Positions 1 through 51,972 of a stretch of DNA of 64,000 bases are shown here, piece by piece (positions within the stretch are counted from its first letter, which is position 1; every line of letters begins with the position of its first letter). This DNA is from Schmidtea polychroa. Taxonomy: Eukaryota. Below the pieces are notes generated by a model that did not search any database, was not told the DNA's origin, and saw only the letters and a program-made list of their open reading frames with translations. Both the position numbers and the translations under genes were made by a program. The stretch is taken from NCBI GenBank assembly GCA_044892525.1, contig CM097885.1, positions 25,670,001 to 25,734,000 of the forward strand. The letters are read 5' to 3'.

Positions 1-1129
1 TAAGTATTTTTTTAAAAGTAATACATGTACTCAAATTGATTGACTGATTTCTCAATATATTCAAAAAAAATCAGTATAAATTCATTACAATTATCAAAGT
101 CAGCAATCTACAATAAAAATAATTATCATAAAATTCCAAAAGACACTGATAACTAATGATAACATCTAATAAACCAGTAAATTTATTTAAATGACAATAA
201 TTGGTATATCCTAGTGAATTCTCCAATTTCTCATTTCCTCCCAAATATATCAATATGTAAAGATTGGTATTGTAATGATAAATACTTGTTAAGGATCATA
301 TATTCACCTCAAACTAACAAGATTCCTTAAAATCCCTTAAATGACTATATTTCTACCCTTAATTCATATTATTACAAATATTTCACTAAAATCATCTAAA
401 AAGCATCAAATTTCATTGAAATAACTCTATCTTTTAAGATTAGTATTTTATCGATAAATATCCTTAAAAGGTTATATATTTACCTCAGACTAATAAGATT
501 GCTTAAAATTCCCTTTAAATGACTTTAATTCCTATTATCACGAATATTTCCCTATAAAACATGTAAAATAATTTGGTCATTAACCCTAAATAATTTATAA
601 AATCTAATGATAAAACTGGTTATAATTAATTTTTTGTTAATAACTGTACTCGATATTTTAAATAAATATTACTACAATATAACTGACTAGGTCCCATTGA
701 AAGATTTATCCATTCAATAAAATATATTTCTTCAAATGATCATTTTTACCAATATTCAACCGATTTAATTACTAATTAAAATCAAGATTTCTTCCAATAA
801 AGATCAATTTTTTTAGTCGATGTTTTAAGTCCATATTTATCAACTTTTGTCATTCTCCCTCTTAAATAAAGATAAAAATAATTTAAAGTTGATATTTCAT
901 TGTCAAAACCAAGTAAATCGGTCATTAACACTACTTAATAAAACCCTGGATAATTAAAAGAAAATTTAATAAAACATTGTTCTAAAACATAAATCTAAAT
1001 TAATATACAATGAATTAATCACAACCTAATAAAACGATATAATTATTAGTGATTCATAACTGACTAATTGCAATTTCCCTTAAAACATTGATATTTTACC
1101 AACATTACCCATGTAAATATTCAAAAGAT

Positions 1130-1400
1130 TCCCATCGAAACCCATCCCTCATTAAAAGCAACCGACTATATCTTTCTTAAAATGAAATATTTCCCATATT
1201 AACCGACTATATCCCCATTAAAAAATCATATATTCCCACCTTATCTGATCTCTCATTAAATCTAACCGACTATATCCCTTTAAAAATCATATATTCCCAT
1301 CTTAACCCATCCCTCATTAAATTTAACCGACAATATCCCATCTTATCCGATCTCTCAGCAAATAATTCTACCCTTTTAAACATCTATCCGATTATATCCC
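1130..1400 (+). repeat. C-rich degenerate minisatellite (aaccgactatatccc core) inside the 6.67 kb unit
   Basis: aaccgactatat/aaccgacaatat recurs at ~1160, 1201, 1264 and 1325. Present in each unit copy. Confidence 0.8.
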
Positions 1401-2149
1401 TTATTTTCCCTAAAGATTCCGCCAACTTGAGCCTTTTAATATATATCAATCCTCTTAAAATCCTCAGAGAAATTCAAAAATATGACTTAACTGTTATAGA
1501 CACCAGACATTCTTCCATTGAAATAATTTAGAAGCTATGTAGTAAGAGCCCGCTGAAAGGTCAAAATTCACTAAAATTTTCTACAAATATTTAACCCATC
1601 AAATACTAGAGATGATATATATTGATTGAACATAATTCTTCAACGATTCAACCAAGCATTTTCAAGCAATAATAGGAAACTAAATTTCAAGTAAGTTAAC
1701 TGGTTTCTTAGCTTATGTTTTTTAAAGTTCATCAATGAGTAAATATTCTTAGAAAATTATTGAAAAAATTATTTAGTCAAATACATTACAAAGTTATCAT
1801 CAAAAATCACTTAATTATTAACCTAATTGTCAATGAAATTAATTTTTATTTAAAAACTATTCAATAAAATACAACTAATTATCAAGAAATTAATTAAATT
1901 TATCAATTAAATTTATCAGTCAACATGAAAGTTTTAGAAAATTGTTCAATATCCTCATAAAAATTTATCATATCACTTGATTATTGTAAAAACTCTAATT
2001 ATTAACCTCATTGAAAATAATTTTTATTTAAAATTTAAAAAAAAACAAGTCAATAAAAATACATCCAATTATCAAGAAATTAATTAAATTTATCTTAGAA
2101 TTAGCATTAAATTATTAAATATTCATTCAATAAACATCAAATTTGCAAA

Positions 2150-2418
2150 AATGTTAGAAATCCACAAAAATAATAGAAATTTACAAAAATCAAAGAAATT
2201 CACAAAAATGATAGAAATCCACAAAAATAATAGAAATTTACAAAAATGATAAAAATTCATTAAAATGATAGATATCCACAAAAATTACTGATATTCACAA
2301 AAAATTATGGAAATTCACAAGAATAATAGAAATTCACAAAAAATGATGGAAATCCACAAAAAACGATAAAAATTTACAAAAAATGATAGAAATTCATAAA
2401 AATGATAGAAATTTACTT
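2150..2418 (+). repeat. ~19-20 bp minisatellite (gatagaaattcacaaaaaat) inside the unit
   Basis: About a dozen degenerate tandem copies of agaaat(t/c)(c/t)acaaaaa. Confidence 0.85.
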
Positions 2419-3596
2419 GAATAAAACCATCAACTCTAAAAATTATCAATGAATGCCATACAAATTTGCCTAAATAATCATTCAAATAAAAGCATTAAAT
2501 ATCTTTACGACTAATACCCTTGCGACTTGTTGAATGTGAGTAGTACCCTTGTGAGCAATACCCATAGGGGGACAGAATATTTTGTCGGATAAACTCACAG
2601 TATATATTAATTAACTCATTCTTCATTGAATTAGTAAAATTATCATAATTTCGATAAAAATTCTAATGTGGTAAGCAATGTAAAAGACAATTATTCTTTA
2701 AACTTTGATAAAATTAACAATGAAGGTGGTAAGAATCTTCATTAAAGTGAGGAAATTACTCGATGATAAATTCAAATGGGTGAAAATAATTGGTAGAATA
2801 ATTCATTAATGGATCATGAGAGGAAAATACTGAGAAGTAGTATAGATAAGATGAAGGTTGATAAGAATGGATGTATTGCAACTATTTTCTAAAAATTAAC
2901 ACTTTAATAAAAGAAAAACTTTTAAAACAAATATTTGTGGGGAAGTGAATAATTAATCAAAATCGGCGGAATATAAGTAGAAAATCGGGGTGGGGGTTAT
3001 AGGCGAATAATTAATGGTAATCAATGGTAAAAAATTTTAAATAAGTAAATTAATGTATTAATTTTTAAATAAGTAAATTAAAGTAATGTAATAAGTAAAT
3101 TAAAGTAAGATTTTAAAATTTAATTACAAAATAATAGAAGGTGTTTGAGAATTGAAATTTTTTGATGAAAATTTTGAAATACCAAGTACATACAACCAAC
3201 ATCAACCAGGTACTAAGCATTATCAACCAAGTACTAACAACCAAGTAACTTACCTAGTACTAAGCACTGTCAACTAGATACCAAACACTTACAACCAGAT
3301 GACCACATGAAATTATTGGTTAAATATGAAAATAAGGATTATATTTAGTTGTTAAGTAAATTATGGTGTAAAATTAAGAAATAAATAATAATTAGGTAAA
3401 TTAAAGTTAAAAATTTTAAATAAGTAAATTAAGGTTCAAAATTTAAAATTAAGTATCCAATGGTTCAAATTTTAAATTAAAGCTAAATAAGTAAATTAAA
3501 GTAAGATTTTTAAATTTATTATCAAAAGATTGAATAACCACCAACTTTTTTTGAGAAATGTAATTTATAATGAAAATTTAAATGGAAATTTTAATG

Positions 3597-3653
<57 letters not shown>

Positions 3654-4124
3654 CAATAATAATAACAATAATAATAATAATAATTCAACAGTTACCAACA
3701 ATCGGTTACTAAATATTTTTAACTAGGTGCTAACAAATACTTTCAACATGATACCACGTACTAACTAACTCTCAAACAACCACATACTTACAACTAACTA
3801 CTTACAATCAACTAAATATTCTTTATTGTATTTTATGAAATGCTTTTTAAATTAATATTTTTTATACAGCTTCTATAATAATTTTAATTACAATCAGTAG
3901 AAAAACCTTTTCAAAATGTCTAAATTTAACAAAAATGTAGATTTTCATCAAAAAATGAATAATTGTCAACTCTAACACCACGTGGAATTCAAAATAATTT
4001 TAATTACAATGAAAGACTAATGAATTCTAATTTACAAAACATTCTTCTTTTAAATGATAACTACTGACTTATTATTGCAATGTAAAAATCGCATTCAATA
4101 AATACTTATTGTTGATCAGTTTTA

Positions 4125-4250
4125 TTATATAAACTCTGAGTTTATCCGACAGGATGTTTTGACCCCCTAAGGGTACAGTTCGTAAGGGTACTGGTCGTAA
4201 GGGTACTGGTCGTAAGGGTATTAGTCGTAAGGGTATTGATCACTCTCAAT
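4125..4250 (+). repeat. Cassette with 15 bp tandem repeat (cgtaagggtactggt)n; direct copy at ~5893-6020, inverted degenerate copy at ~2505-2610
   Basis: ctgagtttatccgacaggatgttttgaccccctaaggg is followed by 4-5 15-mers. The reverse complement is recognisable at 2505-2610. Confidence 0.88.
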
Positions 4251-4269
4251 CCCCACCTACTCATTAATT

Positions 4270-5015
4270 AGCTACCATGTACTAACCACTAGGTTTCAAA
4301 CAACTAAATACTAAACACTTACAACCATGTACTAACAACCAGTTACCTGATACCTAGTACTTACAACTAGTTACTAACAACCAAAAACAAGCAACCAACT
4401 AGGTACCAAGTACTAACAACCAAAAACAACTAGCTAACAACTAGATACCAAGTACCTACAACCACCTACCTATTAACTAGCTACCAAGTACTTACAACTA
4501 GCTACGACCTACCAAGTACTAACAACTAACAACAACCAGGTACTAAGCATTATCAACCAAGTACCTAAAACCACGTATCAAATACATACAACCAACATCA
4601 ACCAGGTACCTACAACTAGATACTAACAAACAGTTACCAAGTACCTACAACCACCTACCCATTAACTAGTTACAACCAGCTAACAACTAGCTACCAAGTA
4701 CTAACAACCAACAACCAGCTAACAACTAACTACCAGATACCTACTACTTACAACCAACAACTAAGTACTAACAACCAGCTAACAACTAGATACCAGGTAC
4801 TAAGCATTATCAACCAAGTACCTACAACTAGATACTAACAACTAGATACCAAGTACCTACAACCACCTACCTATTAACTAGCTACTAGTTACTGACAACT
4901 AGATACCAAGTACATACAACCAACATCAACCAGGTACTAAGCATTATCAACCAAGTACTAACAACCAAGTACAAGATACCTAGTACTGTCAACTAGATAC
5001 CAAACACTTACAACC
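4270..5015 (+). repeat. A/C-rich cryptic simple repeat (ccaagtactaacaa / caactagata motifs)
   Basis: Dense shuffled short motifs with strong strand asymmetry (C much more frequent than G on +). Confidence 0.85.
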
Positions 5016-5399
5016 AGATGACCACATGAAATTATTGGTTAAATATGAAAATAAGGGTTATAATTAGTTGTTTAGTAAATTATGGTGTAAAATTAAGTAA
5101 TAAAGCATAAATAGGTAAATTAAGGATAAGTAAATTAAAGTTAAAAAATTAAATTAAAGTTAATTAAGGTCCAAATTTTAAAAATAAGTAATCAATGTTC
5201 TAAAAAATTAAATTAAAGTTAAATAAGTAAATTAAAGTAATAATTTTTAAAGAATTTAATTAAAGTAATAATTTTTAAATAAGTAATGTAATAAGTAAAT
5301 TAAAGTAAGATTTTTAAATTTATTATCAAAAGATTGAATAACCACCAACTTTTTTGAGAAATGTAATTTTTAATGAAAATTTAAATGGAAATTTAAATG

Positions 5400-5474
<75 letters not shown>

Positions 5475-8400
5475 TACTAATAATTCAACCGTTACCAACA
5501 ATCAGTTACTGATTATTTTTTAACTAGGTGCTAACAAATACTTACACCATGATACCACGTACTAACTAACTCTCAAACAACCAGATACTTACAACTAACT
5601 ACTAAATATTCTTTATTGTATTTTATGAAATGCTTTTTAAATTAATTTTTTATCTATCTTCAAAAATATATTTAATTACAATCATTAGAAAAACCTTTTC
5701 AAATTTAACAAAAATGTTGATTTTCATCAAAAAACCACAACTCATCACCACGTGGAATTCAAAATAATTTTAATTACAATGAAAGACTAATGAATTCTAA
5801 TTTACAAAACATTCTTCTTTTAAATGATAACTACTGACTTATTATTGCAAAGTAAAAATCGCATTCAATAAATACTTATTGTTGATCAGTTTTATTATAT
5901 ATACTCTGAGTTTATCCGACAGGATGTTTTGACCCCCTAAGGGTACAGGTCGTAAGGGTACTGGTCGTAAGGGTATTAGTCGTAAGGGTACTGGTCGAAA
6001 GGATATTGCTAACTCTCAACCCCAACCTACCCATTAACCACCTAACAAGTACCAACAACCAAGTCTCAAACAACTAAATACTAAACACTTACAACCATGT
6101 ACTAACAACCACCATCAAAACCCATCGAGAAATTAACAAATATCAACCTACAACTAGATACTTACAACCAGATACCTGCTACCAAGTACTTACAACAAGA
6201 TACCAAGTACCAACAATCAACTAACCACACATAAAAATAATAGCAATTAAATAAAAAAAATATTCTTCATCGCATACACTATTTTCTTATCAAAATCTAA
6301 AAAGTCAATCAGATACCAACTACCAAGTACCAAGTACTAACAACCAACTACCTAGAACCAACAACTATGTACTAACAAATTGATCTTTAAAAGAAAAATA
6401 CTCATCACTTGAAAAATTAGATGGAAAATTAATTGAACTCAAGGCATCAATAACTAGGTAAAAATTGATTAAATTATTGTAAAAATTTAAAATATTCGAA
6501 ATAAATATCATAAAAATTTAATTAATGGACAGGAAAAAATTCTAGTCATCAAGTAAATAAAAAAAATATTGATCATTCAAGTTGAATCAACTAAGATAAT
6601 AAATTAATAAGATAAGATCTAGTAGATAATTGATTTAGATTGAATAAATTAATTGAAATAAAATTAATTTTAAGTATTTTTTTAAAAGTAATACATGTAC
6701 TCAAATTGATTGACTGATTTCTCAATATATTCAAAAAAAATCAGTATAAATTCATTACAATTATCAAAGTCAGCAATCTACAATAAAAATAATTATCATA
6801 AAATTCCAAAAGACACTGATAACTAATGATAACATCTAATAAACCAGTAAATTTATTTAAATGACAATAATTGGTATATCCTAGTGAATTCTCCAATTTC
6901 TCATTTCCTCCCAAATATATCAATATGTAAAGATTGGTATTGTAATGATAAATACTTGTTAAGGATCATATATTCACCTCAAACTAACAAGATTCCTTAA
7001 AATCCCTTAAATGACTATATTTCTACCCTTAATTCATATTATTACAAATATTTCACTAAAATCATCTAAAAAGCATCAAATTTCATTGAAATAACTCTAT
7101 CTTTTAAGATTAGTATTTTATCGATAAATATCCTTAAAAGGTTATATATTTACCTCAGACTAATAAGATTGCTTAAAATTCCCTTTAAATGACTTTAATT
7201 CCTATTATCACGAATATTTCCCTATAAAACATGTAAAATAATTTGGTCATTAACCCTAAATAATTTATAAAATCTAATGATAAAACTGGTTATAATTAAT
7301 TTTTTGTTAATAACTGTACTCGATATTTTAAATAAATATTACTACAATATAACTGACTAGGTCCCATTGAAAGATTTATCCATTCAATAAAATATATTTC
7401 TTCAAATGATCATTTTTACCAATATTCAACCGATTTAATTACTAATTAAAATCAAGATTTCTTCCAATAAAGATCAATTTTTTTAGTCGATGTTTTAAGT
7501 CCATATTTATCAACTTTTGTCATTCTCCCTCTTAAATAAAGATAAAAATAATTTAAAGTTGATATTTCATTGTCAAAACCAAGTAAATCGGTCATTAACA
7601 CTACTTAATAAAACCCTGGATAATTAAAAGAAAATTTAATAAAACATTGTTCTAAAACATAAATCTAAATTAATATACAATGAATTAATCACAACCTAAT
7701 AAAACGATATAATTATTAGTGATTCATAACTGACTAATTGCAATTTCCCTTAAAACATTGATATTTTACCAACATTACCCATGTAAATATTCAAAAGATT
7801 CCCATCGAAACCCATCCCTCATTAAAAGCAACCGACTATATCTTTCTTAAAATGAAATATTTCCCATATTAACCGACTATATCCCCATTAAAAAATCATA
7901 TATTCCCACCTTATCTGATCTCTCATTAAATCTAACCGACTATATCCCTTTAAAAATCATATATTCCCATCTTAACCCATCCCTCATTAAATTTAACCGA
8001 CAATATCCCATCTTATCCGATCTCTCAGCAAATAATTCTACCCTTTTAAACATCTATCCGATTATATCCCTTATTTTCCCTAAAGATTCCGCCAACTTGA
8101 GCCTTTTAATATATATCAATCCTCTTAAAATCCTCAGAGAAATTCAAAAATATGACTTAACTGTTATAGACACCAGACATTCTTCCATTGAAATAATTTA
8201 GAAGCTATGTAGTAAGAGCCCGCTGAAAGGTCAAAATTCACTAAAATTTTCTACAAATATTTAACCCATCAAATACTAGAGATGATATATATTGATTGAA
8301 CATAATTCTTCAACGATTCAACCAAGCATTTTCAAGCAATAATAGGAAACTAAATTTCAAGTAAGTTAACTGGTTTCTTAGCTTATGTTTTTTAAAGTTC

Positions 8401-9686
8401 ATCAATGAGTAAATATTCTTAGAAAATTATTGAAAAAATTATTTAGTCAAATACATTACAAAGTTATCATCAAAAATCACTTAATTATTAACCTAATTGT
8501 CAATGAAATTAATTTTTATTTAAAAACTATTCAATAAAATACAACTAATTATCAAGAAATTAATTAAATTTATCAATTAAATTTATCAGTCAACATGAAA
8601 GTTTTAGAAAATTGTTCAATATCCTCATAAAAATTTATCATATCACTTGATTATTGTAAAAACTCTAATTATTAACCTCATTGAAAATAATTTTTATTTA
8701 AAATTTAAAAAAAAACAAGTCAATAAAAATACATCCAATTATCAAGAAATTAATTAAATTTATCTTAGAATTAGCATTAAATTATTAAATATTCATTCAA
8801 TAAACATCAAATTTGCAAAAATGTTAGAAATCCACAAAAATAATAGAAATTTACAAAAATCAAAGAAATTCACAAAAATGATAGAAATCCACAAAAATAA
8901 TAGAAATTTACAAAAATGATAAAAATTCATTAAAATGATAGATATCCACAAAAATTACTGATATTCACAAAAAATTATGGAAATTCACAAGAATAATAGA
9001 AATTCACAAAAAATGATGGAAATCCACAAAAAACGATAAAAATTTACAAAAAATGATAGAAATTCATAAAAATGATAGAAATTTACTTGAATAAAACCAT
9101 CAACTCTAAAAATTATCAATGAATGCCATACAAATTTGCCTAAATAATCATTCAAATAAAAGCATTAAATATCTTTACGACTAATACCCTTGCGACTTGT
9201 TGAATGTGAGTAGTACCCTTGTGAGCAATACCCATAGGGGGACAGAATATTTTGTCGGATAAACTCACAGTATATATTAATTAACTCATTCTTCATTGAA
9301 TTAGTAAAATTATCATAATTTCGATAAAAATTCTAATGTGGTAAGCAATGTAAAAGACAATTATTCTTTAAACTTTGATAAAATTAACAATGAAGGTGGT
9401 AAGAATCTTCATTAAAGTGAGGAAATTACTCGATGATAAATTCAAATGGGTGAAAATAATTGGTAGAATAATTCATTAATGGATCATGAGAGGAAAATAC
9501 TGAGAAGTAGTATAGATAAGATGAAGGTTGATAAGAATGGATGTATTGCAACTATTTTCTAAAAATTAACACTTTAATAAAAGAAAAACTTTTAAAACAA
9601 ATATTTGTGGGGAAGTGAATAATTAATCAAAATCGGCGGAATATAAGTAGAAAATCGGGGTGGGGGTTATAGGCGAATAATTAATG

Positions 9687-10266
9687 GTAATCAATGGTAA
9701 AAAATTTTAAATAAGTAAATTAATGTATTAATTTTTAAATAAGTAAATTAAAGTAATGTAATAAGTAAATTAAAGTAAGATTTTAAAATTTAATTACAAA
9801 ATAATAGAAGGTGTTTGAGAATTGAAATTTTTTGATGAAAATTTTGAAATACCAAGTACATACAACCAACATCAACCAGGTACTAAGCATTATCAACCAA
9901 GTACTAACAACCAAGTAACTTACCTAGTACTAAGCACTGTCAACTAGATACCAAACACTTACAACCAGATGACCACATGAAATTATTGGTTAAATATGAA
10001 AATAAGGATTATATTTAGTTGTTAAGTAAATTATGGTGTAAAATTAAGAAATAAATAATAATTAGGTAAATTAAAGTTAAAAATTTTAAATAAGTAAATT
10101 AAGGTTCAAAATTTAAAATTAAGTATCCAATGGTTCAAATTTTAAATTAAAGCTAAATAAGTAAATTAAAGTAAGATTTTTAAATTTATTATCAAAAGAT
10201 TGAATAACCACCAACTTTTTTTGAGAAATGTAATTTATAATGAAAATTTAAATGGAAATTTTAATG

Positions 10267-10329
<63 letters not shown>

Positions 10330-12074
10330 CAATAATAATAACAATAATAATAATAATAATTCAACAGTTACCAACAATCGGTTACTAAATATTTTTAACT
10401 AGGTGCTAACAAATACTTTCAACATGATACCACGTACTAACTAACTCTCAAACAACCACATACTTACAACTAACTACTTACAATCAACTAAATATTCTTT
10501 ATTGTATTTTATGAAATGCTTTTTAAATTAATATTTTTTATACAGCTTCTATAATAATTTTAATTACAATCAGTAGAAAAACCTTTTCAAAATGTCTAAA
10601 TTTAACAAAAATGTAGATTTTCATCAAAAAATGAATAATTGTCAACTCTAACACCACGTGGAATTCAAAATAATTTTAATTACAATGAAAGACTAATGAA
10701 TTCTAATTTACAAAACATTCTTCTTTTAAATGATAACTACTGACTTATTATTGCAATGTAAAAATCGCATTCAATAAATACTTATTGTTGATCAGTTTTA
10801 TTATATAAACTCTGAGTTTATCCGACAGGATGTTTTGACCCCCTAAGGGTACAGTTCGTAAGGGTACTGGTCGTAAGGGTACTGGTCGTAAGGGTATTAG
10901 TCGTAAGGGTATTGATCACTCTCAATCCCCACCTACTCATTAATTAGCTACCATGTACTAACCACTAGGTTTCAAACAACTAAATACTAAACACTTACAA
11001 CCATGTACTAACAACCAGTTACCTGATACCTAGTACTTACAACTAGTTACTAACAACCAAAAACAAGCAACCAACTAGGTACCAAGTACTAACAACCAAA
11101 AACAACTAGCTAACAACTAGATACCAAGTACCTACAACCACCTACCTATTAACTAGCTACCAAGTACTTACAACTAGCTACGACCTACCAAGTACTAACA
11201 ACTAACAACAACCAGGTACTAAGCATTATCAACCAAGTACCTAAAACCACGTATCAAATACATACAACCAACATCAACCAGGTACCTACAACTAGATACT
11301 AACAAACAGTTACCAAGTACCTACAACCACCTACCCATTAACTAGTTACAACCAGCTAACAACTAGCTACCAAGTACTAACAACCAACAACCAGCTAACA
11401 ACTAACTACCAGATACCTACTACTTACAACCAACAACTAAGTACTAACAACCAGCTAACAACTAGATACCAGGTACTAAGCATTATCAACCAAGTACCTA
11501 CAACTAGATACTAACAACTAGATACCAAGTACCTACAACCACCTACCTATTAACTAGCTACTAGTTACTGACAACTAGATACCAAGTACATACAACCAAC
11601 ATCAACCAGGTACTAAGCATTATCAACCAAGTACTAACAACCAAGTACAAGATACCTAGTACTGTCAACTAGATACCAAACACTTACAACCAGATGACCA
11701 CATGAAATTATTGGTTAAATATGAAAATAAGGGTTATAATTAGTTGTTTAGTAAATTATGGTGTAAAATTAAGTAATAAAGCATAAATAGGTAAATTAAG
11801 GATAAGTAAATTAAAGTTAAAAAATTAAATTAAAGTTAATTAAGGTCCAAATTTTAAAAATAAGTAATCAATGTTCTAAAAAATTAAATTAAAGTTAAAT
11901 AAGTAAATTAAAGTAATAATTTTTAAAGAATTTAATTAAAGTAATAATTTTTAAATAAGTAATGTAATAAGTAAATTAAAGTAAGATTTTTAAATTTATT
12001 ATCAAAAGATTGAATAACCACAACTTTTTTGAGAAATGTAATTTTTAATGAAAATTTAAATGGAAATTTAAATG

Positions 12075-12149
<75 letters not shown>

Positions 12150-15100
12150 TACTAATAATTCAACCGTTACCAACAATCAGTTACTGATTATTTTTTAACT
12201 AGGTGCTAACAAATACTTACACCATGATACCACGTACTAACTAACTCTCAAACAACCAGATACTTACAACTAACTACTAAATATTCTTTATTGTATTTTA
12301 TGAAATGCTTTTTAAATTAATTTTTTATCTATCTTCAAAAATATATTTAATTACAATCATTAGAAAAACCTTTTTCAAATTAACAAAAATGTTGATTTTC
12401 ATCAAAAAACCACAACTCATCACCACGTGGAATTCAAAATAATTTTAATTACAATGAAAGACTAATGAATTCTAATTTACAAAACATTCTTCTTTTAAAT
12501 GATAACTACTGACTTATTATTGCAAAGTAAAAATCGCATTCAATAAATACTTATTGTTGATCAGTTTTATTATATATACTCTGAGTTTATCCGACAGGAT
12601 GTTTTGACCCCCTAAGGGTACAGGTCGTAAGGGTACTGGTCGTAAGGGTATTAGTCGTAAGGGTACTGGTCGAAAGGATATTGCTAACTCTCAACCCCAA
12701 CCTACCCATTAACCACCTAACAAGTACCAACAACCAAGTCTCAAACAACTAAATACTAAACACTTACAACCATGTACTAACAACCACCATCAAAACCCAT
12801 CGAGAAATTAACAAATATCAACCTACAACTAGATACTTACAACCAGATACCTGCTACCAAGTACTTACAACAAGATACCAAGTACCAACAATCAACTAAC
12901 CACACATAAAAATAATAGCAATTAAATAAAAAAAATATTCTTCATCGCATACACTATTTTCTTATCAAAATCTAAAAAGTCAATCAGATACCAACTACCA
13001 AGTACCAAGTACTAACAACCAACTACCTAGAACCAACAACTATGTACTAACAAATTGATCTTTAAAAGAAAAATACTCATCACTTGAAAAATTAGATGGA
13101 AAATTAATTGAACTCAAGGCATCAATAACTAGGTAAAAATTGATTAAATTATTGTAAAAATTTAAAATATTCGAAATAAATATCATAAAAATTTAATTAA
13201 TGGACAGGAAAAAATTCTAGTCATCAAGTAAATAAAAAAAATATTGATCATTCAAGTTGAATCAACTAAGATAATAAATTAATAAGATAAGATCTAGTAG
13301 ATAATTGATTTAGATTGAATAAATTAATTGAAATAAAATTAATTTTAAGTATTTTTTTAAAAGTAATACATGTACTCAAATTGATTGACTGATTTCTCAA
13401 TATATTCAAAAAAAATCAGTATAAATTCATTACAATTATCAAAGTCAGCAATCTACAATAAAAATAATTATCATAAAATTCCAAAAGACACTGATAACTA
13501 ATGATAACATCTAATAAACCAGTAAATTTATTTAAATGACAATAATTGGTATATCCTAGTGAATTCTCCAATTTCTCATTTCCTCCCAAATATATCAATA
13601 TGTAAAGATTGGTATTGTAATGATAAATACTTGTTAAGGATCATATATTCACCTCAAACTAACAAGATTCCTTAAAATCCCTTAAATGACTATATTTCTA
13701 CCCTTAATTCATATTATTACAAATATTTCACTAAAATCATCTAAAAAGCATCAAATTTCATTGAAATAACTCTATCTTTTAAGATTAGTATTTTATCGAT
13801 AAATATCCTTAAAAGGTTATATATTTACCTCAGACTAATAAGATTGCTTAAAATTCCCTTTAAATGACTTTAATTCCTATTATCACGAATATTTCCCTAT
13901 AAAACATGTAAAATAATTTGGTCATTAACCCTAAATAATTTATAAAATCTAATGATAAAACTGGTTATAATTAATTTTTTGTTAATAACTGTACTCGATA
14001 TTTTAAATAAATATTACTACAATATAACTGACTAGGTCCCATTGAAAGATTTATCCATTCAATAAAATATATTTCTTCAAATGATCATTTTTACCAATAT
14101 TCAACCGATTTAATTACTAATTAAAATCAAGATTTCTTCCAATAAAGATCAATTTTTTTAGTCGATGTTTTAAGTCCATATTTATCAACTTTTGTCATTC
14201 TCCCTCTTAAATAAAGATAAAAATAATTTAAAGTTGATATTTCATTGTCAAAACCAAGTAAATCGGTCATTAACACTACTTAATAAAACCCTGGATAATT
14301 AAAAGAAAATTTAATAAAACATTGTTCTAAAACATAAATCTAAATTAATATACAATGAATTAATCACAACCTAATAAAACGATATAATTATTAGTGATTC
14401 ATAACTGACTAATTGCAATTTCCCTTAAAACATTGATATTTTACCAACATTACCCATGTAAATATTCAAAAGATTCCCATCGAAACCCATCCCTCATTAA
14501 AAGCAACCGACTATATCTTTCTTAAAATGAAATATTTCCCATATTAACCGACTATATCCCCATTAAAAAATCATATATTCCCACCTTATCTGATCTCTCA
14601 TTAAATCTAACCGACTATATCCCTTTAAAAATCATATATTCCCATCTTAACCCATCCCTCATTAAATTTAACCGACAATATCCCATCTTATCCGATCTCT
14701 CAGCAAATAATTCTACCCTTTTAAACATCTATCCGATTATATCCCTTATTTTCCCTAAAGATTCCGCCAACTTGAGCCTTTTAATATATATCAATCCTCT
14801 TAAAATCCTCAGAGAAATTCAAAAATATGACTTAACTGTTATAGACACCAGACATTCTTCCATTGAAATAATTTAGAAGCTATGTAGTAAGAGCCCGCTG
14901 AAAGGTCAAAATTCACTAAAATTTTCTACAAATATTTAACCCATCAAATACTAGAGATGATATATATTGATTGAACATAATTCTTCAACGATTCAACCAA
15001 GCATTTTCAAGCAATAATAGGAAACTAAATTTCAAGTAAGTTAACTGGTTTCTTAGCTTATGTTTTTTAAAGTTCATCAATGAGTAAATATTCTTAGAAA

Positions 15101-18100
15101 ATTATTGAAAAAATTATTTAGTCAAATACATTACAAAGTTATCATCAAAAATCACTTAATTATTAACCTAATTGTCAATGAAATTAATTTTTATTTAAAA
15201 ACTATTCAATAAAATACAACTAATTATCAAGAAATTAATTAAATTTATCAATTAAATTTATCAGTCAACATGAAAGTTTTAGAAAATTGTTCAATATCCT
15301 CATAAAAATTTATCATATCACTTGATTATTGTAAAAACTCTAATTATTAACCTCATTGAAAATAATTTTTATTTAAAATTTAAAAAAAAACAAGTCAATA
15401 AAAATACATCCAATTATCAAGAAATTAATTAAATTTATCTTAGAATTAGCATTAAATTATTAAATATTCATTCAATAAACATCAAATTTGCAAAAATGTT
15501 AGAAATCCACAAAAATAATAGAAATTTACAAAAATCAAAGAAATTCACAAAAATGATAGAAATCCACAAAAATAATAGAAATTTACAAAAATGATAAAAA
15601 TTCATTAAAATGATAGATATCCACAAAAATTACTGATATTCACAAAAAATTATGGAAATTCACAAGAATAATAGAAATTCACAAAAAATGATGGAAATCC
15701 ACAAAAAACGATAAAAATTTACAAAAAATGATAGAAATTCATAAAAATGATAGAAATTTACTTGAATAAAACCATCAACTCTAAAAATTATCAATGAATG
15801 CCATACAAATTTGCCTAAATAATCATTCAAATAAAAGCATTAAATATCTTTACGACTAATACCCTTGCGACTTGTTGAATGTGAGTAGTACCCTTGTGAG
15901 CAATACCCATAGGGGGACAGAATATTTTGTCGGATAAACTCACAGTATATATTAATTAACTCATTCTTCATTGAATTAGTAAAATTATCATAATTTCGAT
16001 AAAAATTCTAATGTGGTAAGCAATGTAAAAGACAATTATTCTTTAAACTTTGATAAAATTAACAATGAAGGTGGTAAGAATCTTCATTAAAGTGAGGAAA
16101 TTACTCGATGATAAATTCAAATGGGTGAAAATAATTGGTAGAATAATTCATTAATGGATCATGAGAGGAAAATACTGAGAAGTAGTATAGATAAGATGAA
16201 GGTTGATAAGAATGGATGTATTGCAACTATTTTCTAAAAATTAACACTTTAATAAAAAAAAAACTTTTAAAACAAATATTTGTGGGGAAGTGAATAATTA
16301 ATCAAAATCGGCGGAATATAAGTAGAAAATCGGGGTGGGGGTTATAGGCGAATAATTAATGGAAATTCGAGGGGATATAAGTGAATAATTAATGGAGAAT
16401 CGGGGGAATATAGGAGATTAAATAGTGGGATAATGAGAATCGGTGGAATATAAGTGAGAAGGATATGTAATTGAAACTATTTTATTACGTAACAAGCCGC
16501 GACTAATTTATTACATAACAAGCAGTGAATGATATTTTACCAACATTATACATGGTATATAATTTTAATTTTAATTGTATTTTTAAATTGTATATATTTT
16601 CAATATCATTCTATTGTTTAATACCAATAATAAGTATAAAAAGTCTATAATGATTAATAAATTAATATCTTGTTAACATTTATCTGAAAATTTAAAAAAC
16701 TTTACTTAAGATTTAGTGAAATATTTAATTTTGATTGTATTTTATAAGACATATATTTGAGTATTAACTTATTTTGATTGAAGTATTATATTCAATATTA
16801 TGATGATTTTTTTTCTAAATTAAAATATTTTAGTGTAAAATAGTAAATTTAATAATGAATAGAATACAATATTAAAGGACTTTTTAAAAAGAAAAATTAC
16901 TTTCTATTACCTAATTCCATCATTAAGTTTAAAAAGTCTATAACTGGTAATAAATCAATTTCTTATTCACATTTTCTTATAAAACTTATATTTTTAAATT
17001 TAGTGTAAAGAATTTAATTTTAATTGTATTTTATAAGTCATTTATTTGAATATTTATCTTATTTTTATTGAAAGGAGTAATATAATTAATAATATGATAA
17101 TTGTTTTTGAAATATTTAGTGTAGAATAATAAATTTATTAATAAATAATTATTACAATATTAAAGGACTTATACAACAAAATTTTTTTCTTATTCCATAA
17201 AAAAGTTTTAAAGTATATAACTGGTAATAAATTAATTTCTCATTTACATTTATTTAAAAAAGCTTTACTTATAAAATTTATATTTTCTAAGACTTATATT
17301 TGAATATTAACTTATTTTGATTGAAAATGGTAATTGATTTAGAAATTATTTAGTGTAAACTAAAACATTTAAATTATTAAGGTATTAAAGTACCTATTCA
17401 AAAATTAAAAAAAAAAGACCTAATCAATAATTCTCAATAAAATACCATTCACAGCTTGTTATGTAATAAACTAGTCGCGGCTTGTTATGTAATAAAATAG
17501 TTTAAATTACATATCCTTCTCACTTATATTCCACCGATTCTCATTATCCCACTATTTAATCTCCTATATTCCCCCGATTCTCCATTAATTATTCACTTAT
17601 ATCCCCTCGAATTTCCATTAATTATTCGCCTATAACCCCCACCCCGATTTTCTACTTATATTCCGCCGATTCTCCATTAATTATTCACTTATATCCCCTC
17701 GAATTTCCATTAATTATTCGCCTATAACCCCCACCCCGATTTTCTACTTATATTCCGCCGATTTTGATTAATTATTCACTTCCCCACAAATATTTGTTTT
17801 AAAAGTTTTTCTTTTATTAAAGTGTTAATTTTTAGAAAATAGTTGCAATACATCCATTCTTATCAACCTTCATCTTATCTATACTACTTCTCAGTATTTT
17901 CCTCTCATGATCCATTAATGAATTATTCTACCAATTATTTTCACCCATTTGAATTTATCATCGAGTAATTTCCTCACTTTAATGAAGATTCTTACCACCT
18001 TCATTGTTAATTTTATCAAAGTTTAAAGAATAATTGTCTTTTACATTGCTTACCACATTAGAATTTTTATCGAAATTATGATAATTTTACTAATTCAATG

Positions 18101-21100
18101 AAGAATGAGTTAATTAATATATACTGTGAGTTTATCCGACAAAATATTCTGTCCCCCTATGGGTATTGCTCACAAGGGTACTACTCACATTCAACAAGTC
18201 GCAAGGGTATTAGTCGTAAAGATATTTAATGCTTTTATTTGAATGATTATTTAGGCAAATTTGTATGGCATTCATTGATAATTTTTAGAGTTGATGGTTT
18301 TATTCAAGTAAATTTCTATCATTTTTATGAATTTCTATCATTTTTTGTAAATTTTTATCGTTTTTTGTGGATTTCCATCATTTTTTGTGAATTTCTATTA
18401 TTCTTGTGAATTTCCATAATTTTTTGTGAATATCAGTAATTTTTGTGGATATCTATCATTTTAATGAATTTTTATCATTTTTGTAAATTTCTATTATTTT
18501 TGTGGATTTCTATCATTTTTGTGAATTTCTTTGATTTTTGTAAATTTCTATTATTTTTGTGGATTTCTAACATTTTTGCAAATTTGATGTTTATTGAATG
18601 AATATTTAATAATTTAATGCTAATTCTAAGATAAATTTAATTAATTTCTTGATAATTGGATGTATTTTTATTGACTTGTTTTTTTTTAAATTTTAAATAA
18701 AAATTATTTTCAATGAGGTTAATAATTAGAGTTTTTACAATAATCAAGTGATATGATAAATTTTTATGAGGATATTGAACAATTTTCTAAAACTTTCATG
18801 TTGACTGATAAATTTAATTGATAAATTTAATTAATTTCTTGATAATTAGTTGTATTTTATTGAATAGTTTTTAAATAAAAATTAATTTCATTGACAATTA
18901 GGTTAATAATTAAGTGATTTTTGATGATAACTTTGTAATGTATTTGACTAAATAATTTTTTCAATAATTTTCTAAGAATATTTACTCATTGATGAACTTT
19001 AAAAAACATAAGCTAAGAAACCAGTTAACTTACTTGAAATTTAGTTTCCTATTATTGCTTGAAAATGCTTGGTTGAATCGTTGAAGAATTATGTTCAATC
19101 AATATATATCATCTCTAGTATTTGATGGGTTAAATATTTGTAGAAAATTTTAGTGAATTTTGACCTTTCAGCGGGCTCTTACTACATAGCTTCTAAATTA
19201 TTTCAATGGAAGAATGTCTGGTGTCTATAACAGTTAAGTCATATTTTTGAATTTCTCTGAGGATTTTAAGAGGATTGATATATATTAAAAGGCTCAAGTT
19301 GGCGGAATCTTTAGGGAAAATAAGGGATATAATCGGATAGATGTTTAAAAGGGTAGAATTATTTGCTGAGAGATCGGATAAGATGGGATATTGTCGGTTA
19401 AATTTAATGAGGGATGGGTTAAGATGGGAATATATGATTTTTAAAGGGATATAGTCGGTTAGATTTAATGAGAGATCAGATAAGGTGGGAATATATGATT
19501 TTTTAATGGGGATATAGTCGGTTAATATGGGAAATATTTCATTTTAAGAAAGATATAGTCGGTTGCTTTTAATGAGGGATGGGTTTCGATGGGAATCTTT
19601 TGAATATTTACATGGGTAATGTTGGTAAAATATCAATGTTTTAAGGGAAATTGCAATTAGTCAGTTATGAATCACTAATAATTATATCGTTTTATTAGGT
19701 TGTGATTAATTCATTGTATATTAATTTAGATTTATGTTTTAGAACAATGTTTTATTAAATTTTCTTTTAATTATCCAGGGTTTTATTAAGTAGTGTTAAT
19801 GACCGATTTACTTGGTTTTGACAATGAAATATCAACTTTAAATTATTTTTATCTTTATTTAAGAGGGAGAATGACAAAAGTTGATAAATATGGACTTAAA
19901 ACATCGACTAAAAAAATTGATCTTTATTGGAAGAAATCTTGATTTTAATTAGTAATTAAATCGGTTGAATATTGGTAAAAATGATCATTTGAAGAAATAT
20001 ATTTTATTGAATGGATAAATCTTTCAATGGGACCTAGTCAGTTATATTGTAGTAATATTTATTTAAAATATCGAGTACAGTTATTAACAAAAAATTAATT
20101 ATAACCAGTTTTATCATTAGATTTTATAAATTATTTAGGGTTAATGACCAAATTATTTTACATGTTTTATAGGGAAATATTCGTGATAATAGGAATTAAA
20201 GTCATTTAAAGGGAATTTTAAGCAATCTTATTAGTCTGAGGTAAATATATAACCTTTTAAGGATATTTATCGATAAAATACTAATCTTAAAAGATAGAGT
20301 TATTTCAATGAAATTTGATGCTTTTTAGATGATTTTAGTGAAATATTTGTAATAATATGAATTAAGGGTAGAAATATAGTCATTTAAGGGATTTTAAGGA
20401 ATCTTGTTAGTTTGAGGTGAATATATGATCCTTAACAAGTATTTATCATTACAATACCAATCTTTACATATTGATATATTTGGGAGGAAATGAGAAATTG
20501 GAGAATTCACTAGGATATACCAATTATTGTCATTTAAATAAATTTACTGGTTTATTAGATGTTATCATTAGTTATCAGTGTCTTTTGGAATTTTATGATA
20601 ATTATTTTTATTGTAGATTGCTGACTTTGATAATTGTAATGAATTTATACTGATTTTTTTTGAATATATTGAGAAATCAGTCAATCAATTTGAGTACATG
20701 TATTACTTTTAAAAAAATACTTAAAATTAATTTTATTTCAATTAATTTATTCAATCTAAATCAATTATCTACTAGATCTTATCTTATTAATTTATTATCT
20801 TAGTTGATTCAACTTGAATGATCAATATTTTTTTTATTTACTTGATGACTAGAATTTTTTCCTGTCCATTAATTAAATTTTTATGATATTTATTTCGAAT
20901 ATTTTAAATTTTTACAATAATTTAATCAATTTTTACCTAGTTATTGATGCCTTGAGTTCAATTAATTTTCCATCTAATTTTTCAAGTGATGAGTATTTTT
21001 CTTTTAAAGATCAATTTGTTAGTACATAGTTGTTGGTTCTAGGTAGTTGGTTGTTAGTACTTGGTACTTGGTAGTTGGTATCTGATTGACTTTTTAGATT

Positions 21101-21919
21101 TTGATAAGAAAATAGTGTATGCGATGAAGAATATTTTTTTTATTTAATTGCTATTATTTTTATGTGTGGTTAGTTGATTGTTGGTACTTGGTATCTTGTT
21201 GTAAGTACTTGGTAGCAGGTATCTGGTTGTAAGTATCTAGTTGTAGGTTGATATTTGTTAATTTCTCGATGGGTTTTGATGGTGGTTGTTAGTACATGGT
21301 TGTAAGTGTTTAGTATTTAGTTGTTTGAGACTTGGTTGTTGGTACTTGTTAGGTGGTTAATGGGTAGGTTGGGGTTGAGAGTTAGCAATATCCTTTCGAC
21401 CAGTACCCTTACGACTAATACCCTTACGACCAGTACCCTTACGACCTGTACCCTTAGGGGGTCAAAACATCCTGTCGGATAAACTCAGAGTATATATAAT
21501 AAAACTGATCAACAATAAGTATTTATTGAATGCGATTTTTACTTTGCAATAATAAGTCAGTAGTTATCATTTAAAAGAAGAATGTTTTGTAAATTAGAAT
21601 TCATTAGTCTTTCATTGTAATTAAAATTATTTTGAATTCCACGTGGTGATGAGTTGTGGTTTTTTGATGAAAATCAACATTTTTGTTAAATTTGAAAAGG
21701 TTTTTCTAATGATTGTAATTAAATATATTTTTGAAGATAGATAAAAAATTAATTTAAAAAGCATTTCATAAAATACAATAAAGAATATTTAGTAGTTAGT
21801 TGTAAGTATCTGGTTGTTTGAGAGTTAGTTAGTACGTGGTATCATGGTGTAAGTATTTGTTAGCACCTAGTTAAAAAATAATCAGTAACTGATTGTTGGT
21901 AACGGTTGAATTATTAGTA

Positions 21920-21991
<72 letters not shown>

Positions 21992-23737
21992 CATTTAAAT
22001 TTCCATTTAAATTTTCATTAAAAATTACATTTCTCAAAAAAGTTGGTGGTTATTCAATCTTTTGATAATAAATTTAAAAATCTTACTTTAATTTACTTAT
22101 TACATTACTTATTTAAAAATTATTACTTTAATTAAATTCTTTAAAAATTATTACTTTAATTTACTTATTTAACTTTAATTTAATTTTTTAGAACATTGAT
22201 TACTTATTTTTAAAATTTGGACCTTAATTAACTTTAATTTAATTTTTTAACTTTAATTTACTTATCCTTAATTTACCTATTTATGCTTTATTACTTAATT
22301 TTACACCATAATTTACTAAACAACTAATTATAACCCTTATTTTCATATTTAACCAATAATTTCATGTGGTCATCTGGTTGTAAGTGTTTGGTATCTAGTT
22401 GACAGTACTAGGTATCTTGTACTTGGTTGTTAGTACTTGGTTGATAATGCTTAGTACCTGGTTGATGTTGGTTGTATGTACTTGGTATCTAGTTGTCAGT
22501 AACTAGTAGCTAGTTAATAGGTAGGTGGTTGTAGGTACTTGGTATCTAGTTGTTAGTATCTAGTTGTAGGTACTTGGTTGATAATGCTTAGTACCTGGTA
22601 TCTAGTTGTTAGCTGGTTGTTAGTACTTAGTTGTTGGTTGTAAGTAGTAGGTATCTGGTAGTTAGTTGTTAGCTGGTTGTTGGTTGTTAGTACTTGGTAG
22701 CTAGTTGTTAGCTGGTTGTAACTAGTTAATGGGTAGGTGGTTGTAGGTACTTGGTAACTGTTTGTTAGTATCTAGTTGTAGGTACCTGGTTGATGTTGGT
22801 TGTATGTATTTGTTACGTGGTTTTAGGTACTTGGTTGATAATGCTTAGTACCTGGTTGTTGTTAGTTGTTAGTACTTGGTAGGTCGTAGCTAGTTGTAAG
22901 TACTTGGTAGCTAGTTAATAGGTAGGTGGTTGTAGGTACTTGGTATCTAGTTGTTAGCTAGTTGTTTTTGGTTGTTAGTACTTGGTACCTAGTTGGTTGC
23001 TTGTTTTTGGTTGTTAGTAACTAGTTGTAAGTACTAGGTATCAGGTAACTGGTTGTTAGTACATGGTTGTAAGTGTTTAGTATTTAGTTGTTTGAAACCT
23101 AGTGGTTAGTACATGGTAGCTAATTAATGAGTAGGTGGGGATTGAGAGTGATCAATACCCTTACGACTAATACCCTTACGACCAGTACCCTTACGACCAG
23201 TACCCTTACGAACTGTACCCTTAGGGGGTCAAAACATCCTGTCGGATAAACTCAGAGTTTATATAATAAAACTGATCAACAATAAGTATTTATTGAATGC
23301 GATTTTTACATTGCAATAATAAGTCAGTAGTTATCATTTAAAAGAAGAATGTTTTGTAAATTAGAATTCATTAGTCTTTCATTGTTATTAAAATTATTTT
23401 GAATTCCACGTGGTGTTAGAGTTGACAATTATTCATTTTTTGATGAAAATCTACATTTTTGTTAAATTTAGACATTTTGAAAAGGTTTTTCTACTGATTG
23501 TAATTAAAATTATTATAGAAGCTGTATAAAAAATATTAATTTAAAAAGCATTTCATAAAATACAATAAAGAATATTTAGTTGATTGTAAGTAGTTAGTTG
23601 TAAGTATGTGGTTGTTTGAGAGTTAGTTAGTACGTGGTATCATGTTGAAAGTATTTGTTAGCACCTAGTTAAAAATATTTAGTAACCGATTGTTGGTAAC
23701 TGTTGAATTATTATTATTATTATTGTTATTATTATTG

Positions 23738-23818
<81 letters not shown>

Positions 23819-24398
23819 CATTAAAATTTCCATTTAAATTTTCATTATAAATTACATTTCTCAAAAAAAGTTGGTGGTTATTCAATCTTTTGATAATAAA
23901 TTTAAAAATCTTACTTTAATTTACTTATTTAGCTTTAATTTAAAATTTGAACCATTGGATACTTAATTTTAAATTTTGAACCTTAATTTACTTATTTAAA
24001 ATTTTTAACTTTAATTTACCTAATTATTATTTATTTCTTAATTTTACACCATAATTTACTTAACAACTAAATATAATCCTTATTTTCATATTTAACCAAT
24101 AATTTCATGTGGTCATCTGGTTGTAAGTGTTTGGTATCTAGTTGACAGTGCTTAGTACTAGGTAAGTTACTTGGTTGTTAGTACTTGGTTGATAATGCTT
24201 AGTACCTGGTTGATGTTGGTTGTATGTACTTGGTATTTCAAAATTTTCATCAAAAAATTTCAATTCTCAAACACCTTCTATTATTTTGTAATTAAATTTT
24301 AAAATCTTACTTTAATTTACTTATTACATTACTTTAATTTACTTATTTAAAAATTAATACATTAATTTACTTATTTAAAATTTTTTACCATTGATTAC
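9687..24398. repeat. Giant inverted repeat (palindrome): left arm 9687-16539, spacer 16540-17437, right arm 17438-24398
   Basis: 17438-24398 is the reverse complement of 9687-16539. Mirrored ORFs: 13416..13598(-) with 20471..20653(+), and 10200..10388(+) with 23679..23885(-). The arms differ by a 92 bp duplication, (AAT)n length and a few substitutions. Confidence 0.97.
16540..17437. repeat. Central spacer of the palindrome containing three decayed ~280-290 bp tandem copies
   Basis: aagtctataa…taataaat(t/c)aat starts at ~16641, ~16934 and ~17211, each followed by a similar atttg(a/g)atatt…cttattttgattgaa block. Confidence 0.75.
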
Positions 24399-25490
24399 TT
24401 AATTTAAAAATTTGGACCATTATTTACTGTAATTTAGTTTTTAAGAACTTAAATTTACTTTAATTCAAAAATTTGGACCATTATTTACTTTAATTTGAAA
24501 AATTTGAGCCATTATTTACTTTAATTGAAAAATCTGAGCCCATTAATTACTTTAATTCGAAAATATGAACCTTAATTTAATTTTTTAGGACCATAATTAA
24601 CTTTAATTTAATTTTTTAGGACCATTATTTACTTTAATTTAAAATTTTGAACCTTAATTTAGTTATTTGAGCCCATTCATTACTTTAATTGAAAAATCTA
24701 AGCCCATAATTTACTTTAATTCAAAAATTTGGACCATAATTTACTGTAATTTTAAAATTTGGACCATAATTTACTGTAATTCAATTTTTTTTAGACCATA
24801 ATTTACTGTAATATAATTTTTTAGAACCATAATTTACTGTAATTTAATTTTTTAGGACCATAATTACCTTATTTGAAAAATTTGAACCATAATTTACTTT
24901 AATTGAAAAATTTGGACCATTATTTACTTTAATTTAATATTTTAGAACCATAATTTACTTTAATTTAATTTTTAGAACCATTATTTACTGTAATTCAATT
25001 TTTAGAACCATTATTTACTGTAATTGAAAATTTTGAGCCATAATTTACTATAATTTAATTTTTAGAACCATAATTTACTTTAATTTTAAAATTTGGACCT
25101 TAATTTACTTTAATTTAATTTTTAGAACCATTATTTACTTTAATTTAAATTTTTGGACCATTATTTACTGTAATTTAATTTTTAAGAACCATAATTTACT
25201 TTAATTGAAAAATTTGGACCATAATTTACTTTAATTTAATTTTTTAGAACCATAATTTACTTTAATTTAAATTTTTGGACCATTATTTACTGTAATTTAA
25301 TTTTTAAGAACCATTATTTACTTTAATTTAAAAATTTGGACCATAATTTACTGTAATTTAAAAATTTGAGCCATAATTTACTGTAATTTAATTTTTAGAA
25401 CCATAATTTACTGTAATTGAAAAATTTGAGCCATAATTTACTTTAATTTAATTTTTAGAACCATAATTTACTTTAATTGAAAAATTTACC
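24399..25490 (+). repeat. ~30 bp AT-rich satellite (ccataatttactttaattgaaaaatttgga-like)
   Basis: More than 30 tandem degenerate copies of (g/a)accataatttact(t/g)taatt. Confidence 0.92.
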
Positions 25491-25970
25491 ACGTTTTTAG
25501 TGTAGACCACATATTTCTCAGGACCAAGGAGACTCACCTCACTATAGTCTGAAAAATCCTTGGCTTTTTTAGTGTAGACCGGCTTTTTGTATTGAAAATA
25601 TCCTGAGACCTTAAATTACCATGCTTTTTTAGTGGTAGTCGGATTTTTGTATTGAAAAAAAATTTTTGTATTGAAAATCGTAGGACCAACGAGACCCCCT
25701 CACTATAGTGTGAAAATTACCATGCTTTTTTAGTGGTAGTCGGATTTTTGTATTGAAAAAATTTTTTTTTGTATTGAAAATCCTAGGACCATCGTTTTTG
25801 TATAGAAAAAATGTTATTTGTATTGAAAATCCCAGGACCATCGTTTTTGTATTGAAAAATTTTTTTTTGTATTGAAAATCCCAGGACCATCGTTTTTGTA
25901 TTGAAAAATTTTTTTTTGTATTGAAAATCCCAGGACCATCGAGACCCCCTCACTACAGTCTGAAAAATTG
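25490..25970 (+). repeat. Subterminal repeat block (tttgtattgaaaa arrays; three cctcacta(t/c)agt(c/g)tgaaaa motifs)
   Basis: Repeated gtattgaaaatcccaggaccatcg units; cctcactatag-type motif at ~25536, ~25697 and ~25947. Confidence 0.85.
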
Positions 25971-25980
25971 CGTAATCAAA

Positions 25981-26049
25981 AGTTGCAGCAAAAAAAAAGT
26001 TGCAGCAGGGGGTCCCCCCCATTGCTGCGGTACGCTACTATCTACCTAC

Positions 26050-26050
<1 letters not shown>
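25981..26050. mobile_element. Putative right terminus of a giant non-autonomous foldback element (GC hairpin + AGTAG-type end)
   Basis: A hairpin gcagca-ggggg-t-ccccccc-at-tgctgc lies at 26002-26028. The sequence ends …ctactatctacctact and switches abruptly to (ATT)n at 26051. The other end is outside the window. Confidence 0.45.
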
Positions 26051-26092
<42 letters not shown>

Positions 26093-26155
26093 TTTATAAT
26101 TATTATTAATATGAATATAGTGATGATTTCTTGGTGTTAAAATAAGTAAGTAAAT

Positions 26156-26381: not shown

Positions 26382-51972
<25,591 letters not shown>

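Follow-up and report, generated by a model that had tools for sequence, protein, structure and literature searches.

A 33-kb gene-less palindrome in a planarian adducin intron is a likely non-autonomous relative of Maverick/Polinton elements

What kind of sequence is a block of more than 26 kb in which long, nearly identical arms face each other and no credible gene is seen? This question is raised by the first part of a 64,000-bp stretch of DNA from Schmidtea polychroa (hereafter the window; GenBank assembly GCA_044892525.1, contig CM097885.1, positions 25,670,001 to 25,734,000 of the forward strand, or G000:C1:25670001-25734000), which comes from an AT-rich genome assembly of 781 Mb. An original prediction, made from the letters alone, had described one giant non-autonomous element with terminal inverted repeats, whose left terminus would lie upstream of the window. 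We found both termini and no genes between them. The element is very probably a gene-less palindrome with Maverick/Polinton ends, whose copying and insertion likely relied on the polymerase and integrase that coding Mavericks of the same genome encode; it is oversized, with two arm copies likely added after insertion. It is an aberrant member of its family and not a new system.

Self-comparison of the window together with 120 kb of upstream DNA placed the element between positions -7109 and 26050 (negative positions lie upstream of the window), a total length of 33,160 bp (Table 1). The terminal motif AGTAGGTAG stands inverted at these two ends. The layout predicted earlier, consisting of an end at 26050, subterminal repeats, a 30-bp satellite, a 6.7-kb inverted arm and a spacer, was borne out, but the left side is no simple mirror image of it. 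Within the window, the 6.67-kb unit is tandem over 1-16366 and occurs in one inverted copy at 17703-24393, so that three tandem arm copies on the left (-3542..3021, 3022..9691 and 9692..16366) oppose a single right arm; without both extra copies, the element would be 19,815 bp long. The outer blocks are also unequal, with subterminal repeats of 1,190 bp on the left versus 563 bp on the right and satellites of 533 versus 1,153 bp, and the outer parts differ in order. Only the left outer side has an additional 1.6-kb ACTA-rich block, interrupted by a 465-bp insertion (-4502 to -4038) that carries short inverted ends together with an 8-bp duplication and looks hAT-like. The arm copy u2 is composed of AT-rich sequence with AAT runs, ACTA-rich repeats, a unique middle block and repeats of 61, 19 and 33 bp, and contains an internal 1.75-kb duplication made of two lineages. 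The exons flanking the element match PF00596 at positions 69-95 and 134-183 and abut once unmatched residues are counted; therefore the element occupies one single intron of an adducin-family gene. The predicted size of over 26 kb is real for this copy, but it is peculiar to it, as ordinary members of the family measure 13-18 kb.

Table 1. Coordinates of the element, its surroundings and related copies (window positions unless stated otherwise)
Feature	Position	Strand	Remarks
Left terminus	-7109 (G000:C1:25662891)		starts AGTAGGTAGATAGTAGCG; then subterminal repeats, 30-bp satellite, ACTA-rich block
Left-arm copy u0, inner part	1..3021	+	copy starts upstream at -3542
Tandem junction 1	3003..3027	+	left-arm inner end fused to outer start of right-arm-type unit
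Left-arm copy u1, 6,670 bp	3022..9691	+	nearest to right arm: 2 mismatched columns in 6,493
Tandem junction 2	9673..9697	+	identical to junction 1
Left-arm copy u2, 6,675 bp	9692..16366	+	
Conserved ~90-bp motif, TATA-like run at its end	15860..15952	+	one of 12 copies in this element
Other cores of the ~90-bp motif	2584, 4150, 5920, 9254, 10826, 12595, 18140, 21474, 23241	+, -, -, +, -, -, -, +, +	two more upstream
Inner inverted repeat, left copy, 179 bp	16367..16545	+	95% to right copy
Central non-palindromic spacer, 0.88 kb	16546..17429	.	contains two-copy 277-bp repeat
Inner inverted repeat, right copy	17430..17702	-	plus additional 92-bp repeat unit
Right arm, inverted 6.67-kb unit	17703..24393	-	99.5-99.6% to left copies
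30-bp satellite	24335..25487	-	belongs to terminal repeat common to coding Mavericks
Subterminal repeats (49-bp units, 25745-25941) and G/C tract	25488..26033	-	common to coding Mavericks
Right terminus	26034..26050	-	minus strand reads AGTAGGTAGATAGTAGC; sharp end at 26050
(ATT)n target microsatellite	26051..26092	+	present left of left terminus too
Host adducin-family exon (PF00596)	26382..26648	+	next exon after the one just left of the element
Type II example copy	G000:C1:2881467-2895178		further type II element at G000:C1:123366517
Two frames of a coding copy (TBP-like/mu-like copy)	locus L096, 2861-3337 and 4213-4539	-, +	

The ends define a large dispersed family. The genome contains 4,049 exact matches to the 17-base terminus pattern (2,024 forward and 2,025 reverse; control, 0), which implies about 2,000 elements with this end type (type I; a second type is treated below). 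Multiplying their number by their length gives a rough figure of ~30 Mb for the family, or some 4% of the genome, in the form of long palindromes. In a genome search, matches to the terminal 551 bp were spread over many unlinked places (40 scored candidates, giving 73 rows), with a sharp boundary wherever the terminus was kept, so the dispersed copies sharing the 26050 boundary that had been anticipated do exist. The spacer region (16420-17560) was likewise matched elsewhere, at 94-99% in 40 scored places. An exact 6-bp target duplication flanks 38 of the 46 copies examined: 32 of 37 copies with both ends, 6 of 8 that are unusually long or short, and 0 of 1 further copy.

Some copies with the same ends are coding elements, with genes for polymerase, integrase, ATPase and capsid-like proteins. 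Three copies of 16.6-17.9 kb carry PF03175 matches in the genome search, and open reading frames (ORFs) in the coding copies match rve, Pox_A32, TBP and Adeno_PX. The terminal 1.2-2 kb are common to the coding copies and the 33-kb element, and no further sequence is shared; the segment 24890-26007 aligns with both ends of the three coding copies at 74-84%, with short pieces higher. A 407-amino-acid (aa) ORF is a putative capsid gene: its nearest Atlas clusters include DJR-like domains in 24-30% of members, which is a lead only, and it has no match in Pfam nor, by sequence, among solved structures. The assignment leans also on what we presume to be the Maverick gene order. Among the further products of the coding copies are a TBP-like protein (PF00352, E 2.9e-16) and one with an adenovirus mu-like match (PF05829). 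The terminal motif itself is a variant of the (AGT)2 Maverick motif (PMC8097293; this and the other sources are cited for the parts drawn on here). The shared termini, the 6-bp duplications and the shared terminal repeats tie the 33-kb element to Maverick/Polinton and not to FB or Galileo, with which the original prediction had compared it, and make it a likely non-autonomous relative.

A foldback transposon of the FB/Galileo type, cut and pasted by a transposase, would also have long, internally repetitive inverted arms and could lack genes. However, FB makes target duplications of 9 bp and Galileo of 7 bp, against the 6 bp seen here, and no coding elements other than Mavericks were found to have these ends. 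We rejected this reading on both counts, duplication length and Maverick partners, and consider it extremely improbable.

The 33-kb element has no coding capacity, in agreement with the earlier impression that it contains no credible coding sequence. Its longest ATG-started frame has 79 aa and lies inside the terminal repeats, and no polymerase, integrase, ATPase or capsid protein is encoded anywhere in the 33 kb. We considered whether the arms hold decayed Maverick genes. The 129 open frames from four coding loci match the element solely at the terminal repeats and at AAT runs. In four aligned segments of 20-27 copies, variable columns are spread evenly over the three codon phases (131/135/136 in a mid-arm segment) and gaps of 3n length are not enriched (29 of 106, 14 of 56, 12 of 44 and 7 of 28). 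Decayed genes were therefore rejected. No Rfam family was found in 9600-26100 at E up to 0.1.

How typical is a gene-less palindrome of the family? The first 100 listed ends include 22 adjacent pairs that lie 10-18 kb apart, of which 20 were analysed. These 20 copies, a sample skewed towards this size class and drawn from 14 Mb of a single contig, include 14 gene-less ones, of which 13 are palindromic over 81-97% of their length. The remainder comprise four copies with a double polymerase end, one that combines a gene-less arm with structural genes, and one with a full gene set. Five larger pairs are copies of the gene-less type swollen by nested elements or internal amplification; a copy at C1:12799098 (36.3 kb) has near-identical internal amplification within one target duplication. 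Palindromes are formed by coding copies too. A nested Maverick end, a ready seed for fold-back, lies at the centre of five of the six polymerase-end palindromes examined.

Other constructions were observed as well. Nested Maverick ends or mini-elements form the centres of the palindromes L123-L124, L145-L146, L127-L128, L143-L144 and L105-L107, in which the polymerase end is doubled, and one palindrome (L043-L044) doubles the structural end instead. The type I hybrid at G000:C1:4717073-4732320 joins a gene-less arm and spacer to a structural-gene half and is flanked by a 6-bp duplication. A different coding element of ~15 kb, with 363-bp inverted repeats that do not begin with AG, is nested in another type I copy (L167-L169, element positions 3514-18470).

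When the arms within single copies were compared, 13 of 20 copies had a pair that is 99.6-100% alike, while different copies share a mean of 93.4%, which suggests that the arms are remade or homogenised within each copy. The other 7 have arms with a likeness of 91.6-97.2%; in several of these the two arms belong to different clades of the tree, and most of these copies still lie in an exact duplication. Near-identical palindromic copies cluster on the tree. The 33-kb copy is a mosaic whose nearest relative shifts from segment to segment along the arm. An early impression from top-40 lists, that the spacer is better conserved than the arms, was dropped, since copies picked by position gave 89.7% for the spacer versus 93.3-93.9%.

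Palindromic deletion forms occur in linear plasmids. The family itself likely arose through replication and integration driven by a helper, its arms being formed by fold-back repair. The protein-primed polymerase of a helper would displace a single strand, which would then fold at an internal inverted repeat; by copying its own other end, the folded strand would yield two long arms around a spacer and keep them alike. Recombination between strands displaced from different copies would make the arms mosaic, and the helper integrase would insert the product. AGT-type ends, 6-bp duplications and panhandle repair are known for Mavericks or related replicons (PMC8097293; 10.1101/2023.08.22.554363; PMC11886824). 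The panhandle model concerns adenovirus and PRD1, and direct evidence for it is lacking according to the passages of PMC11886824 used here, which reference Wang et al. 1991.

Alternatively, palindromes could have been made singly in the chromosome after insertion, by break-repair fold-back at nested inverted repeats and by gene conversion, and never have moved as palindromes. This would suit the nested insertions at the centres of polymerase-end palindromes, the triplication in the 33-kb copy, which is itself likely a chromosomal event, and two copies whose flanks are inverted relative to each other in place of a direct duplication (G000:C3:55514131-55532007, about 430 bp, and C1:5691791-5708550). 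Candidate readings of these flanks are post-insertion fold-back, insertion into a palindrome, or artefact. However, if a copy folded back within the chromosome, its far side would be left without a direct 6-bp duplication, and most palindromic copies have one; the same arm-spacer-arm plan also recurs at unlinked loci, and the near-identical palindromes form clusters on the tree. The duplications thus largely refute a one-by-one chromosomal origin for the family, which we regard as improbable.

The extra arm copies require an explanation of their own. Copies u1 and u2 begin in the outer form of the right arm, that is, without the left arm's 1.6-kb ACTA block, and at the unit join only about one base is common with the preceding inner end. 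The four arm copies differ from each other by 2-8 mismatched columns in ~6,500, and u1 and the right arm by 2. The outer form of u1 and u2 and the closeness of u1 to the right arm point to synthesis having recently switched its template, leaving the left arm for the right one. Furthermore, the 25-mer spanning the junction occurs genome-wide only at the two junctions of this element, and no near-identical mid-arm sibling was found elsewhere in the genome (the best reaches 94%, or 96% over part), which makes a local event after insertion likely. At the adducin locus, synthesis would have run off the left arm at its inner end, resumed at the outer end of the right arm and proceeded inward again, either twice or once with subsequent unequal exchange.

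The assembly itself could be at fault, in which case the real element would measure ~19.8 kb and the two additional copies would have been created by misassembly of a long palindrome. The restriction of the junction to this locus would fit this, as would the 99.9% likeness of the arm copies and the lack of a bridging piece among 32 listed contig pieces. Yet several of the differences between arm copies lie outside simple repeats, AAT lengths differ too, the junction is a specific new join and not a loop through an existing repeat, and C1:12799098, though a product of the same assembler, was amplified likewise inside one duplication. We consider an artefact unlikely.

Several observations weigh against the account we favour, a fold-back palindrome mobilised by coding Mavericks. 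The tandem junction is unbridged among the 32 contig pieces listed (from four runs with all bins covered; there are 6,706 further pieces). The target duplication is well established for the family, but at the 33-kb copy it is unreadable, since the insertion lies within (ATT)n and six surplus AGT units precede the left terminus; ATTATT stands on both sides if these units count as element, which is uninformative at such a site. Eight of the 46 copies have no exact duplication, three of them being off by a single base, and the two copies with inverted flanks argue that some palindromes form or grow within the chromosome. No homology could be detected between the interior and the type I coding copies, so the interior is not a simple deletion product of them. 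A Pfam scan of the 1,445-aa polymerase ORF gave no PF03175 row, although the same place reached 113 bits in the genome search. Finally, replication outside the chromosome and fold-back are proposed steps, and trans-mobilisation by a coding element is inferred from the shared ends and duplications only. As to the six AGT units (-7127 to -7110), 112 of the 114 distinct termini seen have none; polymerase slide-back and slippage beside the microsatellite are candidate explanations.

If the interior does not derive from type I coding copies, where might it come from? A second end type, type II (AGTAGTAGGATGTGGGC), has 250 forward and 270 reverse matches. Ten type II copies comprise four gene-less palindromes (13.6-14.7 kb), three hybrids of filler and structural genes without polymerase, and three with a full gene set, and 9 of the 10 have a 6-bp duplication. 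The interior of the gene-less ones is 64-80% alike to the arm in the window, and the best-kept part is a ~90-bp motif (86-94%). This motif occurs 12 times in the 33-kb element versus at most four times in other gene-less type I copies without nested inserts, and its 19-base core has 6,411 exact genome matches. Each terminal repeat of the three examined coding copies of type II contains it once (92% over 75 bp relative to the one in the window), and type I coding copies lack it, with none seen upstream of their genes. This distribution suggests that the filler derives from the type II system. We also considered the motif as a Helitron end or as a promoter of type I genes, and rejected both, as type I coding copies do without it.

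A further question is whether the lengths of these elements tell us how they spread. Adjacent type I end pairs (n=38) lie 13-18 kb apart in 19 cases, closer in 7 and farther in 12, and 22 of 30 type II pairs under 100 kb fall at 12-18 kb. Differently built derivatives of 11-18 kb are close to the 16.2-17.9-kb coding copies, and such independent convergence on helper length hints at size selection by a capsid. Vertebrate Mavericks vary only ~10% around 17 kb (PMC8097293), and adenovirus vectors that depend on a helper form direct and inverted dimers by rearrangement when they fall short of 75% of genome length (PMC4189039). Against capsid selection stand short copies with duplications, of 7.1, 8.2, 10.9 and 11.2 kb, the shared descent of copies, one polymerase pair that implies a palindrome of roughly 7-8 kb, and the size selection of the detailed sample. 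A possible, though rather doubtful, extension of our account is that the Mavericks here consist of helpers and satellites, and that the need to fit the helper's capsid keeps gene-less palindromes, doubled polymerase or structural halves and filler-plus-structural hybrids near helper length; natural gutless vectors would outnumber their helpers and recombine during replication, and their filler lineage would have passed between two Maverick end types. If so, the 33-kb copy would have become too large for the capsid once inserted and would be a dead end, the length spectrum would be fossil evidence that animal Mavericks spread as particles, and family DNA would be expected as linear, protein-capped or nuclease-protected molecules. 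Particles were unobserved as of the 2021 vertebrate survey (PMC8097293, in the part cited). A family of ~2,000 elements, most of the sampled ones gene-less and near helper length, gives a direct handle on whether Mavericks move as viruses.

The rest of the window contains an intron-less ORF for a 515-aa MFS transporter (PF07690; 57326-58873), with an 86% identical second copy that starts near the window end (63260-64000), an imperfect 376-bp palindrome (88%; 62739-63114), a degenerate TAA-rich satellite (30385-31870) and a perfect (AT)56 run (32982-33094). Frames at 35674-36127, 44822-46147, 49399-49665 and 60615-61950 resemble fragments of piggyBac, Tc1/mariner and hAT transposases and of HSP90.

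Long palindromes of this family lend themselves to rearrangement, as the 33-kb copy shows by its two 6.7-kb additions within a host intron. In C. elegans, Polinton repeats drive inversions (10.1101/2024.01.15.575659). Planarian Polintons are piRNA targets (PMC8532177), and Mavericks have expanded in Dugesia (10.64898/2025.12.11.693146). A review of giant transposons treats Burro and Polintons (PMC6431247), a planarian genome comparison mentions neither Polinton nor palindrome in its main text (PMC11410931), and Anolis is without non-autonomous copies in the passages of PMC3014272 used here. We found no publication on gene-less palindromic Mavericks in the literature; a Repbase or Dfam entry may exist, and supplements were outside the search.

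Among known systems, FB and Galileo resemble the family in their long, internally repetitive inverted arms and in being mostly non-autonomous, but they differ in duplication length, in their ends and in having a transposase rather than a polymerase-integrase helper. With Mavericks/Polintons the family shares AGT-type ends, 6-bp duplications and the terminal repeats of the 16.6-17.9-kb coding copies (PMC8097293; 10.1101/2023.08.22.554363), whereas the 33-kb element is gene-less, has inverted arms of ~7-8 kb instead of 0.1-1.5 kb and has an unrelated interior. Autonomous Mavericks/Polintons measure 13-25 kb, a range outside which its 33,160 bp fall, and vertebrate Mavericks number a median of 8 and a maximum under 300, compared with ~2,000 elements of this end type. 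At C. elegans eri-6/7, Polinton-derived inverted repeats lie in a host gene and are tied to rearrangements, but these are ~0.7-kb repeats and partial copies, and the passages cited describe no genome-length gene-less family (10.1101/2024.01.15.575659). Gutless adenovirus vectors similarly consist of ends and non-coding filler only, and undersized genomes dimerise to near wild-type length (PMC4189039); those are laboratory constructs with proven packaging, whereas the elements here integrate and are known from sequence. Lastly, the panhandle replicons of adenovirus and PRD1 offer a likeness in which folding of the displaced strand, through an intermediate presumed here, would explain the arms, the spacer and the homogenisation together (PMC11886824).

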